Assembly (NCBI GenBank): GCA_938084745.1
Contig: CALKEZ010000001.1
Location: forward strand, 1,127 to 65,126
DNA length: 64,000 nucleotides
DNA from: an uncultured Gammaproteobacteria bacterium
GTDB taxonomy: Bacteria > Pseudomonadota > Gammaproteobacteria > Eutrophobiales > Eutrophobiaceae
Direction of reading: 5' to 3'
Positions within the stretch are counted from its first letter, which is position 1. Each line of letters starts with the position of its first letter. The notes under the pieces are model-generated. The model worked only from the letters and a program-made list of their open reading frames with translations. It ran no database searches and was not told where the DNA came from. The position numbers were made by a program, and so were the translations under genes. Shown here one piece after another: positions 1,243-53,172 of the stretch.

Positions 1243-2346
1243 TTAGTCCGCCGGAATGACTTGATGTTTATCGCCAGCCTGCTTTTTGTATCGGTATTGA
1301 GGCAGGTAATACAGGGCCAATAATATCGCGCCCAGTAAAAAGTGTACCCACCACAAACCAATAAAGCCTGGAATAACATCCCGATTCAGTAGTGTTTTCG
1401 CAATCCCCAGCAAATTACTGTAGATAAGATAAATCGATATGCCGATTAAAAACGGCATGTACTTGCGATCGCTGGTGTGTGCCTGCATCAATAAAATTGC
1501 CAGTATAGACAGCAATAAACAGGAGAAAATTAATGAGATCCGCCATTGCAACTCGGCAATATAAGTCTTGTTGTCAGAGCCGATGATTTCTGCTGTTGAT
1601 AATGCCGCTGTTTTTGCGCCCGGGGCATTTGTCTCCCCGCTCTCTGTTAAAATTGCGTAGTGCTCGTACTCGGTTATCTGGTAATCAAGCAGCCCGGGCG
1701 TACCAACATAACGTCGGCCATCACTAAAAACGATATATTTGTTGCCTGATTTTTTATCCAGTCTAAAGCGGGCACTGTCAGAGGTTAAAACACCGAGTTT
1801 TCCGTCCTGCCGTACCTGTAGAAAAACTTCTTCCATCGACAGGTTATCGGGTGATGGCTTCTGCACATAAACCACACGGTCACCCTGGCTAAACTCTTTA
1901 AATTGTCCCGCTTTAATACCCGAGATATCAGATTCCTGTTTGGCTCTTTCTTTCAAATTGTGTACGCCCTGTTCTGCCCAAGGCGCAAAAAACAAGGTAA
2001 TAACCGCTACAATAAAACAAAAAACAAGCGCGAACCTTACCACTATGCCAATTTGAAAAACTTTACTTATTCCCGCCGCAGCCAATATCACCAGTTCCCT
2101 GTCGCTGTCCATACGGGAAAAAGCCAGTAGCATGGCCACAAGTATTGAAATGGGTAATATCTTGGGCAAGGTTGCCAACATTTTATAGGCCAGCATCAGG
2201 AAAACCATGTCCGGTGGTAAGCTACCCTCGGCAGCATCTGCCAGAAACCCCACAAATCGATTACTGGCGATAACAAGAATCAGCAAACTCAATATCCATA
2301 GCAATTTTTGCAACAGTTCCCGGTAGATATAATGCTGGATGATCAC
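1243..2346 (-). CDS. lptF: LPS export ABC transporter permease LptF
   Basis: MIIQHYIYRE start, 'DRELVILAAAG' and 'AELQWR' motifs; divergent from pepA as in other gammaproteobacteria. Confidence 0.95.
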   Translation of the reverse strand: MIIQHYIYRELLQKLLWILSLLILVIASNRFVGFLADAAEGSLPPDMVFLMLAYKMLATLPKILPISILVAMLLAFSRMDSDRELVILAAAGISKVFQIGIVVRFALVFCFIVAVITLFFAPWAEQGVHNLKERAKQESDISGIKAGQFKEFSQGDRVVYVQKPSPDNLSMEEVFLQVRQDGKLGVLTSDSARFRLDKKSGNKYIVFSDGRRYVGTPGLLDYQITEYEHYAILTESGETNAPGAKTAALSTAEIIGSDNKTYIAELQWRISLIFSCLLLSILAILLMQAHTSDRKYMPFLIGISIYLIYSNLLGIAKTLLNRDVIPGFIGLWWVHFLLGAILLALYYLPQYRYKKQAGDKHQVIPAD

Positions 2347-33150: not shown

Positions 33151-33924
33151 ATGCAGCAAACTTTCCAGCATAGACAACACAGCACCCCGTCTAAAGAACA
33201 GGCCTATCAAAATGATTTGATGCTAGCCGCCGATTTTCAACGCGCGGTATTGCCGAAAATCATCCAGATTGATTATTTGGATATTGCCTTGATGTACAAA
33301 CCCTACGACACCGTATCGGGTGATGTGTATGACTTTATCCTGAACCGAGAGAGAGAACTTGCCATCTTCGTTGGCGACGCCACGGGGCATGGTATTTCTG
33401 CCGCATTAATGACCATGATGGTACATATTGCCATCGATAGTCTTACTCCAAACCTGTCAACAGACGAATCCATTCGCAAACTGAACCGCGTAATTGCATC
33501 ACGCAACACGGGTCGATCTGTCAGCAGTGTCTTGTTGCGGATCACCCCGCAAGGAAAAATGACATTAACCCATGCCGGACATCCCTCCGCTATTGTGATA
33601 CCTGCCGACAACTCCGGGCTGGTTCTGTTTGATGAAGCGGGTTGTGCGCTCGGTTTGTTTATTGAAGAACCGGTAAAATATATTGAAGAAACCTATCAAT
33701 TAAAACCCGGCGACAAGGTAATCGCGTATACCGATGGTCTAATTGAATGGCGTAATAAAGATAAACAAGTCTATGGTGCTGAAAAACTACTGAATTACAT
33801 CAAGCAGAACCACGCGCTTGATTGCGATGCGTTAATGCAGGGGATTTATGCCGATGTTGAAGCATTTGCAAACCAGCAAGAGATTAACGATGACTTAACG
33901 TTGTTAGTTGCTAGATATAATTAA
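33151..33924 (+). CDS. Stand-alone PP2C/SpoIIE-family serine phosphatase (RsbU-like)
   Basis: VSGDVYD, GDATGHG, HAGH, YTDGL and DDLT motifs; no sensor domain. Confidence 0.9.
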   Translation: MQQTFQHRQHSTPSKEQAYQNDLMLAADFQRAVLPKIIQIDYLDIALMYKPYDTVSGDVYDFILNRERELAIFVGDATGHGISAALMTMMVHIAIDSLTPNLSTDESIRKLNRVIASRNTGRSVSSVLLRITPQGKMTLTHAGHPSAIVIPADNSGLVLFDEAGCALGLFIEEPVKYIEETYQLKPGDKVIAYTDGLIEWRNKDKQVYGAEKLLNYIKQNHALDCDALMQGIYADVEAFANQQEINDDLTLLVARYN

Positions 33925-33963
33925 CCGTAAACAACACACGAATAAGCAGAAGTCTCAACCTGA

Positions 33964-35043
33964 TTAAGTACGCCCCGTTAATGTCGTGTCATCACTCTCA
34001 TGCGTCGGCCAGACATTGATCAAGGCTTTGACCAGAGTTGCTAATGGAATAGCAAAGAACACACCCCAAAAACCCCATAAGCCACCAAACACCAGTATCG
34101 CAACGATGATCGCGACCGGATGCAGGTTGACCGCTTCCGAAAACAGAATAGGCACCAGAACGTTACCATCAAGAAACTGGATGACCAGATAGGAGAACAT
34201 TAGCCAGGTGAAATCGGAGCTAATACCCCATTGAAAATAGGCCACAAAGGCGACCGGTAAAGTCACGACAGCCGCACCTATATAAGGTATTAAAACCGAC
34301 AGACCGACCAGCATCGCCAGTAGCGAGGCATAATTAAGACCGAGAATAACAAAAAGAATATACGAGACGGCGCCGACAATAATGATCTCATTGAATTTGC
34401 CGCGGACATAGTTACCAATTTGCGCGTCCATCTCTGTCCAGATCTCATTCACCAGCCGTCTTTCCTTTGGTAGAAACCGCCCCAACCAATCCAGAATGAT
34501 GCTTTTGTCTTTCAGAAAAAAGAAGATCATTAACGGTACCAGTACCAGATAAACAAGAACCGTAATAATTGCCGGAATTGACGCAACAGATAACGAAAGA
34601 ACACTGCGCCCAAGCTCGCTAAAGCCCTGGCGGATTGTGATAATGAGTTGGCTTATATATTCTTCAGAAATAAATTCAGGGTATTGTCCGGGTAAGCGCA
34701 ATAACAGATCCTGTCCATTATTAATCATGTCCGGCACTTCCTGAAAAAACTGACTCACCTGCTTTGATAGTAATGGCATCAATCCAAACAAAATAAACAA
34801 CATGAAAGCAACAAATAAGAGGTAAACCAGGCTCACCGCCCAAAGTCGTGAAAACCGTTTTCCTTCCAGTTTTAAAACCGCGCCTTCGAGTAAATAGGCA
34901 ATGATAAGTGCTGCCAACAAGGGCGCTAACATTTTGCCCATGGTTAGCAAGATCGCAGCGCCGAGGAATAACAAGACGACTAATAATGCCGCTTGCGGAT
35001 CAGTAAAGTAGCGTCGATACCATGAACTAATAAAGTCAAACAT
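33964..35043 (-). CDS. AI-2E family transporter (PerM-like)
   Basis: Multi-TM protein with IPYIGA, QFLDGN and LHPVAII..GG.WG..G.FFAIP. Confidence 0.92.
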   Translation of the reverse strand: MFDFISSWYRRYFTDPQAALLVVLLFLGAAILLTMGKMLAPLLAALIIAYLLEGAVLKLEGKRFSRLWAVSLVYLLFVAFMLFILFGLMPLLSKQVSQFFQEVPDMINNGQDLLLRLPGQYPEFISEEYISQLIITIRQGFSELGRSVLSLSVASIPAIITVLVYLVLVPLMIFFFLKDKSIILDWLGRFLPKERRLVNEIWTEMDAQIGNYVRGKFNEIIIVGAVSYILFVILGLNYASLLAMLVGLSVLIPYIGAAVVTLPVAFVAYFQWGISSDFTWLMFSYLVIQFLDGNVLVPILFSEAVNLHPVAIIVAILVFGGLWGFWGVFFAIPLATLVKALINVWPTHESDDTTLTGRT

Positions 35044-35154
35044 GTGTTACATCGTGTTCAATTATAATTTGAATCATCATAGCGGTATCTTTCATCGACA
35101 GCGAGCAGATAGCATAATTATGTATCTAAACCATGAAAACTTAAGGGACAGTGC

Positions 35155-35190
35155 AAAAAAAAAAGGGCGCCGGAGGGGGTGGCACCCTTT
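35155..35190 (-). terminator. Rho-independent terminator with C-rich loop
   Basis: Minus strand reads AAAGGGUGCC-ACCCCCUCC-GGCGCCC followed by U10. Confidence 0.85.
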
Positions 35191-35243
35191 AAAAATACAA
35201 CAAAACTGCTGAGGAGGAAAACAAAACCTAACTATTTCTCAGT
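35155..35243 (-). ncRNA. Candidate sigma-54-dependent small RNA (~90 nt)
   Basis: No ORF; lies between a -24/-12 promoter and an intrinsic terminator; contains UUUUCCUCCUC and a terminator loop ACCCCCUCC (both anti-SD). The 5' end is inferred from the promoter. Confidence 0.6.
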
Positions 35244-35251
35244 AGTTATAA

Positions 35252-35268
35252 AGCAGTAGTTGTGCCAA
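35252..35268 (-). promoter_or_regulatory. Sigma-54 (-24/-12) promoter
   Basis: TTGGCACAACTACTGCT is GG-N10-GC with a TGGCAC core; IHF-like ATTCAATGACTTA at 35286-35298 and NtrC-like half-sites at 35330-35368 lie upstream. Confidence 0.75.
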
Positions 35269-35418
35269 CCTTGATTAGTACCGATATTCAATGACTTAGA
35301 CAAAACCTGACAGATACATGTTATATAATTGCACCATGATCGTTTATTTTTAGGACATAAATGGTGCGTTGCAAAAAAAAATGTCCCTCATCAGTGAATC
35401 TGGCTAATATCAGGCAAT

Positions 35419-36471
35419 ATGGATCAAACACAGTTATCAAGTCAGATAAAATCCTGGGGTATCGCCTTAGGCTTTCAGCAAGTGGGTATTACTACAACCT
35501 CTCTCGAGGAAGATGAAACACACCTGCTTAACTGGCTAAATCAGGGACGGCACGGCGAGATGGCGTATATGCAACGACATGGCAACAAACGCAGCCGTCC
35601 CGGGGATCTGGTAGCCGGTACTATCAGCGTGATCTCGGTAAGAATGGATTACCTGCCGCCATCCAGCAAACACCCTGGACAAGTGCTTAACAATAATAAG
35701 CTCGGCTATGTTTCTCGCTACGCGATGGGGCGTGATTATCACAAACTCATTCGCCACCGCTTACAAAAGCTCGCAACTAAAATAGAAAAGCAGTACGGCG
35801 AATTTGGTTATCGTTGTTTTGTCGACAGTGCGCCGGTGCTGGAAAAAGCACTGGCACGCAATGCCGGCTTGGGATGGATAGGCAAACACAGCAATCTCAT
35901 CAACCCTAAAGCCGGATCATGGTTTTTTCTGGGCGAAATATATACTGATTTACCACTCGAAATTGATACGCCATTTACAGAACAGCATTGTGGCACCTGC
36001 AATGCCTGTATCGACATATGCCCTACACAGGCAATAGTCGGTCCCATGCAAGTTGATGCACGTCGTTGTATTTCTTATTTGACGATTGAATTACGTAGTT
36101 CCATCCCGGAGGAATTTCGAAAGATGATCGGCAACCGTGTCTATGGCTGTGATGATTGTCAATTGATCTGTCCCTGGAACAAATTTGCCAAAAATACCGA
36201 GGAAGATGATTTTCGTGTGCGCAATGGCCTGGACGCACCAACGCTGGTTGACTTGTTTGCCTGGACAGAAACAGATTTTTTGAAAAATACTGAAGGATCT
36301 GCTATCCGTCGGATAGGTTATGAATGTTGGTCGCGAAATATTGCTGTGGGCTTGGGTAACGCGCCCAATAGTGATGAGACTATTAACGCCTTGCGCTTAC
36401 GGCAGAACGATCCCTCGGCTATGGTGCGTGAACATGTGGCATGGGCGTTGGCACAGCATGCCTTAAATTAA
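35419..36471 (+). CDS. queG: tRNA epoxyqueuosine(34) reductase
   Basis: RYAMGRDYH, VDSAPVLEK, CGTCNACIDICPT and YGCDDCQLICPWN. Confidence 0.96.
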   Translation: MDQTQLSSQIKSWGIALGFQQVGITTTSLEEDETHLLNWLNQGRHGEMAYMQRHGNKRSRPGDLVAGTISVISVRMDYLPPSSKHPGQVLNNNKLGYVSRYAMGRDYHKLIRHRLQKLATKIEKQYGEFGYRCFVDSAPVLEKALARNAGLGWIGKHSNLINPKAGSWFFLGEIYTDLPLEIDTPFTEQHCGTCNACIDICPTQAIVGPMQVDARRCISYLTIELRSSIPEEFRKMIGNRVYGCDDCQLICPWNKFAKNTEEDDFRVRNGLDAPTLVDLFAWTETDFLKNTEGSAIRRIGYECWSRNIAVGLGNAPNSDETINALRLRQNDPSAMVREHVAWALAQHALN

Positions 36472-36485
36472 GCATCAGCGATGCA

Positions 36486-36944
36486 CTATTCAGAAAACAT
36501 CGTTTCTCCTTCTACATTAAATACCGTACCTTCAACACTCATAACCCGTACCTTCATACCTGCGGGCATATCGGTGCCCCTTACTTTCCAGGTCGAGTCA
36601 TCTACCTTGACCTTACCGACACCATTCACTATCGCTTCTTCCAGTGTAAAACTGCGGCCTATGTATTGCTCGCCGCGCCGATTAAGGTGGGGTTCATCCC
36701 TTACTTCGGGATTCATTTTTTGATGACGTTTATACATATAGACACTTACTATCGATAACACGCCAAAGATAATGACTTGAATCAATAAAGGTATGCCCGG
36801 CACAGCGTATAACAACAAACCCACAACAAAGGCGGAGATACCCATCCATAAAAAATAGGCTGCCGGTAATACCATCTCAATAATGATCATCACGACAGCA
36901 GCAATCAGCCAATGCCAAAAAGCAATCTGTTCTAACCATTCCAT
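36486..36944 (-). CDS. NfeD family protein (YbbJ-like)
   Basis: Three N-terminal TM helices plus OB fold (LNRRG..YIG, GKVKVDDSTW); paired with an SPFH gene. Confidence 0.9.
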   Translation of the reverse strand: MEWLEQIAFWHWLIAAVVMIIIEMVLPAAYFLWMGISAFVVGLLLYAVPGIPLLIQVIIFGVLSIVSVYMYKRHQKMNPEVRDEPHLNRRGEQYIGRSFTLEEAIVNGVGKVKVDDSTWKVRGTDMPAGMKVRVMSVEGTVFNVEGETMFSE

Positions 36945-51195: not shown

Positions 51196-53079
51196 TCAAT
51201 TTATTTGCTGCCCGTAAGATTTAAAGTCGCGCGGATCGATCAGGTATTTCTTGAGTCGCGACATCACCGTTGTTGGTTTCATATCCAGTAACTCGGCAGC
51301 ACCACCTTCACCAAAAACTTTTCCCTGGCATTGATCAAGTGCAACCAGTAAATTGCGTCGGTCTCTGTCTTTAATTTCCGAGTCTGTAAGGACTGTTTTA
51401 TCATTTAAAATTTGCCGAGGAACGTTTTCATTATTAATAGAAACGAGTTCATTAAAACGTATGCTATTACCCTGGGCAAGAATGACCTGTCGCTCTATTA
51501 CATTTTCCAGTTCGCGAATATTACCGGGCCAATGATAGCTTTTAAGTTTTTCCAGTTCACTTAAGGAAATTTTAAGACCTGTTTTTTTTGCCCGTATAAC
51601 AGCGCGCTGAATAAAGTGCTGTGTCAATAATGGAATATCCTCCGGTCGATTGCGTAGCGGAACCGACTCAATCGGGAACACGTTCAATCTAAAATATAAA
51701 TCTTCGCGAAAATGTCCCTGCTCTACCTGTTTTTTTAATTTACGATTCGTTGCGGCGATGATCCGTACATCAACATTTCGGGTTTTTGATTCACCCACTC
51801 GTTCAAACTGCTGTTCCTGTAACACGCGCAGTAATTTTCCCTGAAGATGAAGCGGAATCTCACCAACTTCATCCAGAAACAAGGTGCCGCCATCGGCTAA
51901 TTCAAATCGACCCGGACGATCTGATGTTGCACCGGTAAACGCTCCCTTTGCATGACCAAAGAATTCGCTTTCAAAAAGATCTTCCGGTATGGCTGCACAG
52001 TTCACCCGAATTAAAGATCGTTGAGATCGTTCACTCATCTCATGTATAGCACGCGCTATTAATTCCTTACCTGTACCAGACTCACCATTTATCAATACAG
52101 TGGCATCGGTAGGTGCAACCAGATTGATTTGCTGCACAATATTCTGGATAGCAGGACTCTTGCCTATTATTTGATGGTGATTAAATTCAGAATTGATTTC
52201 TTCTTGCAGATAAGCATTTTCCATTTCCAGTCTGTTTTTCAGGTTTTGTACTTCGATCAACGCTTCCAGTAATCGTTTCTTGTCGGTCTTTTTTTGTGAT
52301 ACGTCATGAAAAATAACAACTGCACCTACAATAAAACCGTTGTCACGAATCGGCGTGCTGGTGTATTCAACATCAACGGGCTTGCCTGATTTCGACCAGA
52401 AAACATCTTCCTCAACGGTATGTACTGTCCCATCCCGAAAAGCCTCAAAGATCGGACATTGCTCAATCCCGAAATGAGAGCCATTCACACGACTATGATG
52501 GATCATGCTATGCATATTTCGCCCGGCCAGCTCTGCGGCACTAAAACCCAGGATGCGCTCAGCGGCGGGATTGACAAAAGTAGTGATGCCTTTTTCATCA
52601 ACGCCGTAAATTCCTTCACCAACCGCATCAAGTATCAGTTGGTTTTCTCTTTCGAATTCCTGGAAGACCCGACTGACCCGGTTCCAATGACCAATACCGG
52701 AAAGATAATGTCGCTGCGCATCGGACAACTCGCGTAACTGATCCAGTTCATCTGCCAATTGCAGGCTCAAATGAAGCTGTAACTGATCACTGCTTTCAAA
52801 ACTGCGACCTGTTACTTCCATGCGTAGTTCGCCTTTATTACAGGTAAGTAATAAATGGTCTGACCAGGCCCGGCCCTGATCGATGACTTCTTCGGTAAAG
52901 ACCACCATCGCCGGGAAACTGGGCGAGAATAAATGACTGGCACGTTGTGATTCAATTTCTTCAACACTCATTCCCAGTAAACGACAGATTTCCTGATTAG
53001 CACCGATAATCTTGTCTGATATTGGTTCAACGACTAACTGGGGAGTAGCTGAATAATAAAAAAAACTGTCATTGATCAT
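51196..53079 (-). CDS. Sigma-54 enhancer-binding protein (PAS-PAS-AAA+-HTH)
   Basis: [30 protein letters not shown] and C-terminal HTH; N-terminal PAS domains; start is ATG 53079 or TTG 53094. Confidence 0.93.
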
Positions 53080-53172
53080 ATTTATTGGACTCAAAATAAA
53101 GGACGTAATACCAACGTTTTAGTAACGCTGTTTTGATATAGTTAGTAACTCTATCTCAACATCTATGCCAAC

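Follow-up and report, generated by a model that had tools for sequence, protein, structure and literature searches.

Which gene, if any, occupies the 375-bp spacer (35044–35418) that separates a PerM-like AI-2E permease open reading frame (ORF) on the minus strand from the divergent queG gene on the plus strand in an uncultured gammaproteobacterium? We addressed this question within a 64,000-nt stretch of the organism's DNA (hereafter the window; GenBank assembly GCA_938084745.1, contig CALKEZ010000001.1, positions 1,127–65,126, forward strand), for which a preliminary description made from the letters alone had proposed an unannotated sigma-54-dependent small RNA (sRNA) gene pointing towards the permease gene. 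Every feature listed in that description was recovered at its position in the minus-strand sequence, and comparison with related genomes indicates that the locus is very likely a real, conserved regulatory sRNA gene whose family has not yet been catalogued. The family is new but of a known kind, and its function is what we infer. The interpretation to which we incline, with somewhat more confidence than doubt, is that of a stand-alone, ~85-nt, NtrC/sigma-54-activated and probably Hfq-associated sRNA that would act in trans, its CCUC(C) motifs probably pairing with Shine–Dalgarno (SD) regions. Throughout, the window's own genome refers to a 2.2-Mb assembly of 57 contigs with a completeness of 87%; G-numbers denote comparison genomes and L-numbers denote loci.

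Reading along the minus strand, the control region begins with a distal enhancer box (NtrC-type site 1, 35352–35376), in which cGCACCA-TTT-ATGTCCT (35368–35352) is preceded by a conserved TTGC, and continues with a proximal box (NtrC-type site 2, 35329–35346), which reads TAAACGA-TCA-TGGTGCA and then A. The half-boxes CGCACCA (35368–35362) and TGGTGCA (35336–35330) extend to 17-mers at 35368–35352 and 35346–35330 with centres 22 bp apart, confirming in the minus-strand sequence the two degenerate 17-bp sites, spaced 22 bp apart, of the initial proposal. These are followed by a site of the type bent by integration host factor (IHF), TAAGTCATTGAAT at 35286–35298, whose plus-strand reading ATTCAATGACTTA differs by one mismatch from the IHF consensus, WATCAANNNNTTR; ihfA is encoded in the own genome (172 bits against a cut-off of 120). 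The −24/−12 promoter, TTGGCAC-AACTA-CTGCT (35268–35252), contains TGGCAC-AACTA-CTGC at 35267–35253 with the GG/GC spacing canonical for sigma-54. The C of its −12 element lies at 35253, which places the predicted start 12 nt further, near 35241; relative to this start, the predicted enhancer boxes are centred at about −97 and −119 and the IHF-type site at about −51.

The pattern of conservation coincides with this layout. Upon aligning 17 upstream regions of the genus with MAFFT, all 29 invariant columns fell into five blocks matching the predicted boxes: 35376–35355 (10 columns: TTGC, GCA, A and GT), 35334–35329 (five columns, GT.CAA), 35298–35287 (six columns, TA at 35298–35297 and TGAA at 35290–35287), 35267–35263 (TGGCA) and 35255–35253 (TGC). 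The two promoter elements were thus invariant in 17/17 aligned relatives, and the stretches that separate the five blocks vary freely. The succession of upstream activator sites, IHF-type site and −24/−12 promoter put forward in the preliminary description is backed by this footprint. Beyond the genus, the −24/−12 element recurs in seven loci of other genera, and it is mutated in the one relic copy described below (G019).

From this promoter, an RNA of ~80–87 nt is predicted (35155–35241, minus strand; start 12 nt after the −12 C, end in a run of U). It opens with a 5′ hairpin (35204–35236) in which AAUAGUU (35236–35230) pairs with AGCAGUU (35210–35204) around a loop bearing a first motif complementary to SD sequences (anti-SD), CCUCCUC at 35217–35211. 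A U-rich linker follows (UUUUGUUGUAUUUUUAAA, 35188–35205), whose core UGUUGUAUUUUUA is invariant in ten sequences of the type to which the window belongs (A-type, below) and which may serve as an Hfq site or a seed. The RNA closes with an intrinsic terminator (35155–35187) composed of GGGUGCC (35187–35181), the loop ACCCCCUCC (35180–35172) with a second anti-SD motif, GGCGCCC (35171–35165) and U10 (35164–35155). The unit had been described as ORF-less and as terminating ~110 bp before the permease gene, and both statements hold: no ORF is conserved across the sequence types, and the gap between terminator and start codon measures 112 nt. A small peptide was considered and rejected, the unit having no AUG and its short GUG and UUG frames not being kept in relatives. 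The U10 tail, the UUUUGUUGUAUUUUUA ahead of the terminator stem and the presence of hfq in the own genome (100 bits against a cut-off of 61.7) together resemble the features of an Hfq-type sRNA.

Conservation in the genus was assessed at the level of DNA and then of locus. A search with the spacer DNA across 40 relatives returned matches in 9/22 same-genus genomes (69–75% identity) and in 0/18 others, and the extent of the match was exactly 35378–35157, from the boxes through the terminator. The A-type sequences (10, including the window) all carry TTGGCAC-N5-CTGC, and their 3′ half, UGUUGUAUUUUUA..GG(C/U)GCCAC(C/U)CCCUCCGGCGCC, is almost invariant. For 12 genus genomes in which no DNA match was found, the region upstream of queG was extracted; seven of them hold a diverged RNA (B-type) in the same place and behind the same upstream boxes, reading GGUAGUC..CCUC..GACUGUCCUCUGCUCCUAA and then the terminator GGGCGUC-CCCCUC-GACGCCC, and the other five (G014, G002, G016, G007 and G021) have a short spacer from which the module is absent. 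A natural pseudogene completes the picture: G019 preserves a decayed copy of the whole module on a small contig (L103, positions 265–350 plus 120 nt upstream) in which the −24 GG has become GA, CTGC has become CTAT and neither the CCUC motif nor an intact terminator survives, boxes and RNA having decayed together. The tally for the genus is 17/23 genomes with an intact module, one with a decayed module and five without.

To reach more distant relatives, we searched all 126 genomes of the order (one family, 34 genera) with R2, a covariance model trained exclusively on B-type sequences. It recovered the B-types and also the A-types (E 1.6e-5 to 1.1e-3); the window's own copy was missed under strict filters and recovered in a small search at 21.5 bits (E 0.0046). 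Furthermore, loci of three other genera matched R2 with E values from 4e-10 to 1e-8 (G101; G102, G104, G105 and G106; G110), and G123 matched at E 0.004. All seven of these other-genus loci have two GCAC/GTGC-type boxes, a TAA..TTGA site, TGGCA(C/T)-N5-NTGC and a terminator, and all lie between queG (69–82% identical) and the permease gene (74–82%), pointing at the latter. A pooled model (R3) returned the same set and some weak matches, of which those in G009, G003, G014 and G100 were rejected as ordinary terminators or as having no promoter; among 150 genomes of the class that belong to other families, it gave a single weak candidate match (E 0.004). Within the own genome the covariance models find exactly one copy, and about 27 genera of the family gave no match. 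Judged by these alignments and models, the module is conserved across at least five genera (the genus itself and at least four more). The comparison of permease–queG spacers among relatives, suggested at the outset as a check, thus returns a conserved promoter, conserved CCUC motifs and, as follows, helices that covary.

All types follow one plan: a 5′ hairpin, whose loop bears CCUC(C)UC on its 3′ side, leads through a single-stranded linker to a terminator. When 23 sequences of all types were aligned to the model, 96.7% of cells in the two helices were paired (37–61% with a slid partner) and 10/14 pairs had changed on both sides, values reached by 0/500 shuffles; these counts lean towards structure because the alignment is itself fitted to the model. 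Helix 1 had 92.9% of cells paired and 6/7 pairs changed on both sides in alignment A5, including a compensatory exchange of GUC/GAC (B- and C-types) for GUU/AAC (A-type), and in the window six of its seven pairs form. Helix 2, the terminator, was 100% paired in the 23 sequences with 4/7 pairs changed on both sides (C-G versus U-A). In a separate MAFFT alignment of the seven B-type sequences, 99% of cells in the two helices were paired, compared with 28–55% for slid partners. Folded by itself, the RNA gives a modest z-score (−2.08; 10/200 shuffles are as good). A 5′ CUGAG/CUCAG stem named in the preliminary description proved specific to this genome and is not kept in relatives; the helix that comparison supports, AAUAGUU/AGCAGUU, likewise leaves CCUCCUC in the loop.

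The composition of the RNA body differs between types. B- and C-types have UCCUCUGCUC(C/U)UAA as their linker, where the A-type has UUUUGUUGUAUUUUUA instead; a C-rich terminator loop (CCCCUC) occurs in the A, B and G123 types and not in the C-type. The sole feature of the RNA body common to all sequence types is the CCUC motif, present at least once in every type. Of the C-rich anti-SD motifs originally noted, CCUC is kept throughout, and the C-rich terminator loop is absent from the C-type.

No described family accounts for the element. As anticipated, an Rfam scan of the region returned no family at its gathering threshold; the best scores were 23.1 bits for RF00489 ctRNA_p42d (threshold 50), 17.8 for RF00519 mmgR/suhB (41) and 17.6 for RF02344 ar14 (58.8), and the matches seen at permissive thresholds, all sub-threshold, were driven by the terminator and the CCUCC motif. 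By Rfam, then, the RNA does not belong to a described family. A generic terminator scan did not call the hairpin at 35187–35165 because its loop limit is 8 nt and the loop here has 9 nt. A scan for the terminator 21-mer in bacterial and archaeal genomes, one for each species, gave 71 stretches, 10 of which had TGTTGTA upstream; nine of these were known A-type relatives and one was a chance match in a record of 67% GC. The remaining 21-mer matches were rejected as GC-rich chance.

Which activator would bind the enhancer boxes? NtrC recognises a palindrome, TGCACCA-N3-TGGTGCA, usually present in two or more copies. The B-type enhancers, GCACCAtgaCTGTGC (site 1, fitting GCAC-N7-GTGC) and CACTAtgaTAGTGCAA (site 2), have centres 20 bp apart; in the A-type in general, only the outer half-sites are well kept. 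When five genomes were searched for GCAC(C/T)A-N3-T(A/G)GTGC, four sites appeared, in two genomes. Two of them, with GCACTAnnnTAGTGCAAT, lie directly before ntrB in G008 (reading GCACTAtaaTAGTGCAAT) and in G003 (equivalent). A third, accompanied by another site 42 bp away, belongs to a GSII-like glutamine synthetase gene of G003, where it stands ~150–200 nt upstream of the TTGGAAC-N5-TTGCA that precedes the gene; the fourth precedes a small ORF for which no obvious sigma-54 promoter was seen. The right half of the proximal sRNA box, TAGTGCAAT, is identical to the palindrome before ntrB in both G008 and G003, and the invariant TAGTGCAA(T) of the sRNA enhancers equals the right half of the ntrB site. 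The upstream regions of type I glnA in G008 and G003 showed no clear sigma-54 promoter. Because the sRNA enhancers share their motif with the sites before ntrB and the GSII-like gene of the same genus, as the earlier label of NtrC-like boxes had implied, NtrC is the best activator candidate, and on these motifs a probable one.

Two observations on these regulators stand on their own. The GSII-like (eukaryote-type) gene of G003 (L153, positions 1260–1560, minus strand) has a textbook arrangement of two GCAC-N7-GTGC sites and a sigma-54 promoter. One of the nine sigma-54 enhancer-binding proteins of the own genome is encoded in the window itself (51196–53094, minus strand). This protein of 632 aa has a long sensory region at its N-terminus and scores highest with the NifA and NorR models, in both cases below cut-off.

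We then considered how the RNA relates to the permease gene that it faces. Between the two lies a conserved block, CTCGCTGT..AAGATACCGCTATGAT (35076–35105, minus strand; reading CTCGC..AAGATAnCGnTATGAT), which we treat as a putative permease promoter or operator, no more firmly than that because a simple sigma-70 scan called no promoter there. The block is conserved in relatives with the RNA module and equally in the five genus genomes without it. In every locus the terminator has a 7-bp GC-rich stem and U7–U10, and in four B-type genomes insertions of ~70 to 260 nt separate terminator from block. Separation of the RNA from the permease gene is supported because the downstream block persists where the RNA module has been lost, in keeping with the opinion that the unit is not a simple perM leader. 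The insertions (L118 in G009, L123 in G018, L125 in G004 and L126 in G001) sit directly behind the terminator, as is also seen at L187, a different locus, and several start with TGTACAGGAT(G/T)TAC; they may represent a small mobile element that targets terminators, and the motif is absent from the own genome.

Taken together, these features suggest the following course of events. An NtrC-type activator would bind the two sites ~97 and ~119 bp upstream of the start, and an IHF-type bend at about −51 would bring it to the closed complex at TGGCAC-N5-CTGC. Sigma-54 RNA polymerase would then start near 35241 and stop at the strong intrinsic terminator (35187–35155), ahead of the permease gene. The resulting RNA would display CCUCCUC in its 5′ hairpin loop and CCCCCUCC in its terminator loop, both unpaired in the predicted structure, with a U-rich linker between them; linker and U-tail would fit an Hfq-type sRNA. 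CCUC(C) matches the core of the anti-Shine–Dalgarno sequence of 16S rRNA, ACCUCCU. The motif would most likely pair with the ribosome-binding sites of targets and so lower their translation when nitrogen is scarce. In the own genome, outside the window, a 14-nt perfect complement to the U-rich linker lies at C3:22547–22560, in the 5′ UTR of a gene for a 256-aa OmpA-family lipoprotein that is itself located downstream of ispG; the complement is 27–40 nt upstream of the start of this gene.

Several observations count against this interpretation, and rival explanations draw on them. The most sweeping rival is a chance assembly of motifs with no function. It can point to the promoter: TGGCAC-N5-YTGC occurs once in the window with 0.32 occurrences expected, and is not significant alone because 29/100 shuffles contain at least one match, and a looser pattern has 19 matches in the 2.2-Mb genome compared with ~9 computed from base composition. 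What raises the finding above chance is its conservation in relatives, with boxes, RNA and terminator retained across at least five genera, compensatory changes in the helices and joint decay in one relic, which makes coincidence extremely improbable. The structural support itself carries a caveat: the covariation figures (10/14 pairs) come from the model-fitted alignment, and the independent MAFFT alignment of seven B-types is weaker, with two pairs changed on both sides, a result matched by 119/500 shuffles. A different reading takes the unit as the regulated leader of the PerM-like gene, in which sigma-54 would provide the nitrogen-responsive promoter of the permease and the terminator would be an attenuator that polymerase passes in certain conditions, or the short RNA a by-product. 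It gains from the position of the module, which lies directly upstream of, and directed at, the same permease gene in every locus of five genera, an arrangement that a purely trans-acting RNA does not require; from the 71–112 nt that separate terminator and start codon at the own locus and at those of the C-type and G123; and from the sigma-70 scan of the spacer, which called no promoter for the permease gene between terminator and start. It is opposed by the strength and invariance of the terminator, for whose 5′ half no alternative pairing was seen in the RNA body; by the block with TATGAT or TATCAT, kept in five genomes that have the gene and no sigma-54 module; by the tolerance of insertions of up to ~260 nt between terminator and block; and by an RNA body that evolves in types as CCUC persists, unusual for a leader without a ligand-like conserved core. 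On this balance, we regard a leader as quite unlikely.

Assuming a stand-alone sRNA, its signal and its mode of action have each a competitor. The RNA could be sigma-54-dependent and respond to a signal other than nitrogen through another enhancer-binding protein, for example one that is NtrX-like or GlrR-like, or an unclassified response regulator. None of the nine enhancer-binding proteins of the own genome reaches the NtrC cut-off (best score 401 against 558.6), and searches of the own assembly (completeness 87%) recovered neither rpoN nor ntrC nor glnA. The window keeps good outer halves only (GCACCA and TGGTGCA), its inner halves ATGTCCT and TAAACGA being poor, so that both sites are half-palindromes; the conserved TTGC falls outside the 17-mer; and exact GCAC-N7-GTGC occurs in the own genome at the level of chance (17 found, ~17 expected). 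Against another activator, the B-type sites fit GCAC-N7-GTGC, share TAGTGCAAT with the ntrB palindrome and resemble the sites of the GSII-like gene. Furthermore, rpoN and a true ntrC (711–725 bits against the cut-off of 558.6) are present in 4/4 relatives searched (G003, G010, G004 and G008; 95–100% complete), and the absence of both from the own assembly is therefore most simply a gap in it; the nine enhancer-binding proteins likewise imply that rpoN is present. A non-NtrC activator is, on this evidence, unlikely. Unlikely too, in our estimation, is that the RNA is something other than a general anti-SD repressor, regulating a few specific targets through its linker (UGUUGUAUUUUUA in the A-type, UCCUCUGCUCUUAA in B- and C-types) or acting as a sponge or decoy for a protein or RNA. 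In its favour, the linker and not CCUCC is the most conserved stretch within each type, the C-type terminator loop has no C-rich motif and the A-type has replaced its second CCUC stretch, and anti-SD content consequently varies. It is countered by the replacement of the linker between types as CCUC persists, and by the scans for exact complements, which found none conserved for either linker outside the sRNA gene: with the 10-mer of the B/C linker in five C-type genomes, 5/7 matches were the sRNA gene itself and two were unrelated, and with the 12-mer in five A-type relatives, 0/5 extra matches fell near an OmpA-like gene. Because the 12-mer was not recovered near such a gene, the OmpA-family complement may be a matter of chance. 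Duplex prediction with RNAduplex over 8176 candidate start regions yielded loop-rich, unspecific optima. As to expression, two RNA runs, containing fractions of 0.20 and 0.13 of the words from a 9.9-kb stretch, gave 0 contigs on 33900–36600 and are uninformative in that respect; two runs of unrecorded kind did cover 33900–36600.

The downstream, same-strand neighbour of the sRNA gene is the PerM-like AI-2E family permease gene (33964–35043, minus strand; E 4.5e-27 to AI-2E transporter models, below their cut-offs), and the divergent neighbour is queG, encoding epoxyqueuosine reductase (35419–36471, plus strand; TIGR00276, 503.8 bits against a cut-off of 200). Neither gene has a GGAGG-type ribosome-binding site. 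The queG start lies 51 nt from enhancer box 1, and the enhancer boxes as a whole (35329–35376) are only 43–90 nt upstream of the queG start codon; an activator bound there could also influence transcription of queG, for which no promoter was identified.

Other candidate RNAs were encountered in the relatives. Around position 1501 of four loci (L185 in G131, L186 in G132, L188 in G007 and L176 in G101) there is a different candidate sRNA of ~75 nt, reading AAGAAUUAUCG-UUUA-CGAUAAU-AUCCUC.. and then a terminator rich in GC. Repeats of GATAATAATTCTTATT that resemble Fur boxes stand ahead of it in L185 and L186, and it may be an iron-regulated, RyhB- or PrrF-like RNA; a search of the own genome for its exact motif returned nothing. 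Around positions 1501–1600 of L175 (G135) and L187 (G138), which are not queG–permease loci, sigma-54-like promoters (TGGCCT-N5-CTGCA and TGGCAT-N5-ATGCT) each precede a short C-rich RNA (CUUCUCCUCCCCCC and CCCCCUCCCUCC) with a terminator; these may be analogous sRNAs.

To our knowledge, sigma-54/NtrC-dependent sRNAs are known from a handful of cultured model bacteria. The locus described here adds a well-delimited candidate from an uncultured aquatic gammaproteobacterial family. Sequence was enough to recognise in it a complete set of enhancer, IHF site, promoter, RNA and terminator, and comparison alone to confirm that set. It also supplies a candidate Rfam-type family of 23 sequences with two covariation-supported helices and models R1 to R3. 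Its promoter is more conserved than the RNA body, and one clade has exchanged the second C-rich stretch for a U-rich one. If the anti-SD reading is true, nitrogen status would be linked to translation initiation in this lineage. A bolder extension, which we offer as speculation and hold to be improbable, would make the RNA a translation brake for nitrogen starvation, that is, an NtrC-induced mimic of the 16S 3′ end whose two or three CCUCC copies would compete with ribosomes for strong SD sites on many mRNAs. The regulatory DNA would then have been frozen as the RNA body was rebuilt between the A, B, C and G123 types, and the similar C-rich RNAs in G135 and G138 would point to a wider, uncatalogued class in the order.

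How does the element compare with known systems? Literature searches, which used no lineage name, listed no sRNA at a queG–perM locus. Among stand-alone sRNA genes, Qrr, GlmY/GlmZ and CrcZ have a sigma-54 promoter together with an enhancer and an IHF site and are activated by LuxO, GlrR and CbrB, respectively; they share the gene layout of the present element and differ from it in activators, binding motifs, structures and modes of action. Closer in its signal is NrsZ of Pseudomonas aeruginosa, reportedly a processed RNA of repeated modules that adjoins ntrC and activates rhlA. NrsZ is an sRNA induced by NtrB/C under nitrogen limitation (PMC4253122), sharing with our candidate the regulatory logic of NtrC, sigma-54 and sRNA. 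Its sequence and structure are unrelated, the RNA here being single-module, located between queG and a permease gene and equipped with CCUC motifs. MmgR/alpha-r8 (RF00519, ‘suhB’) is of similar size and places a C-rich motif of the UUUCCUCCCU type between its small hairpin and its terminator, but at 17.8 bits against a gathering threshold of 41 the present RNA is no member of that family, which belongs to another phylogenetic class. MmgR is also said to be under nitrogen-linked control.

Two further RNAs, GlnZ of enterobacteria (PMC9731577; bioRxiv 10.1101/2022.04.01.486790) and NcS25 of Burkholderia cenocepacia (PMC10117139), are reported to have levels that follow NtrC/sigma-54 under nitrogen limitation and to repress mRNAs by pairing, with Hfq; their regulatory logic is again the one proposed for our candidate. 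Neither shares sequence with the RNA here, neither is known to be an anti-SD RNA, and GlnZ, unlike our candidate, is processed out of the 3′ UTR of glnA and lacks its own promoter. The nearest parallel in action is NfeR1/alpha-r14 of rhizobia (Rfam RF02344), a nitrogen-responsive trans-acting sRNA that carries CCUCCUCCC anti-SD motifs unpaired in its hairpins, three in number and each with the identical motif; it is transcribed from a sigma-70 promoter that is activated by LsrB and repressed by NtrC, which binds there, and it silences ntrBC by pairing at ribosome-binding sites (PMC10746234). NfeR1 is alphaproteobacterial and its model scores our element at 17.6 bits against a threshold of 58.8, whereas the gene described here has a sigma-54 promoter with activator-type sites; what the two RNAs appear to share is their likely mode of action, anti-SD pairing.

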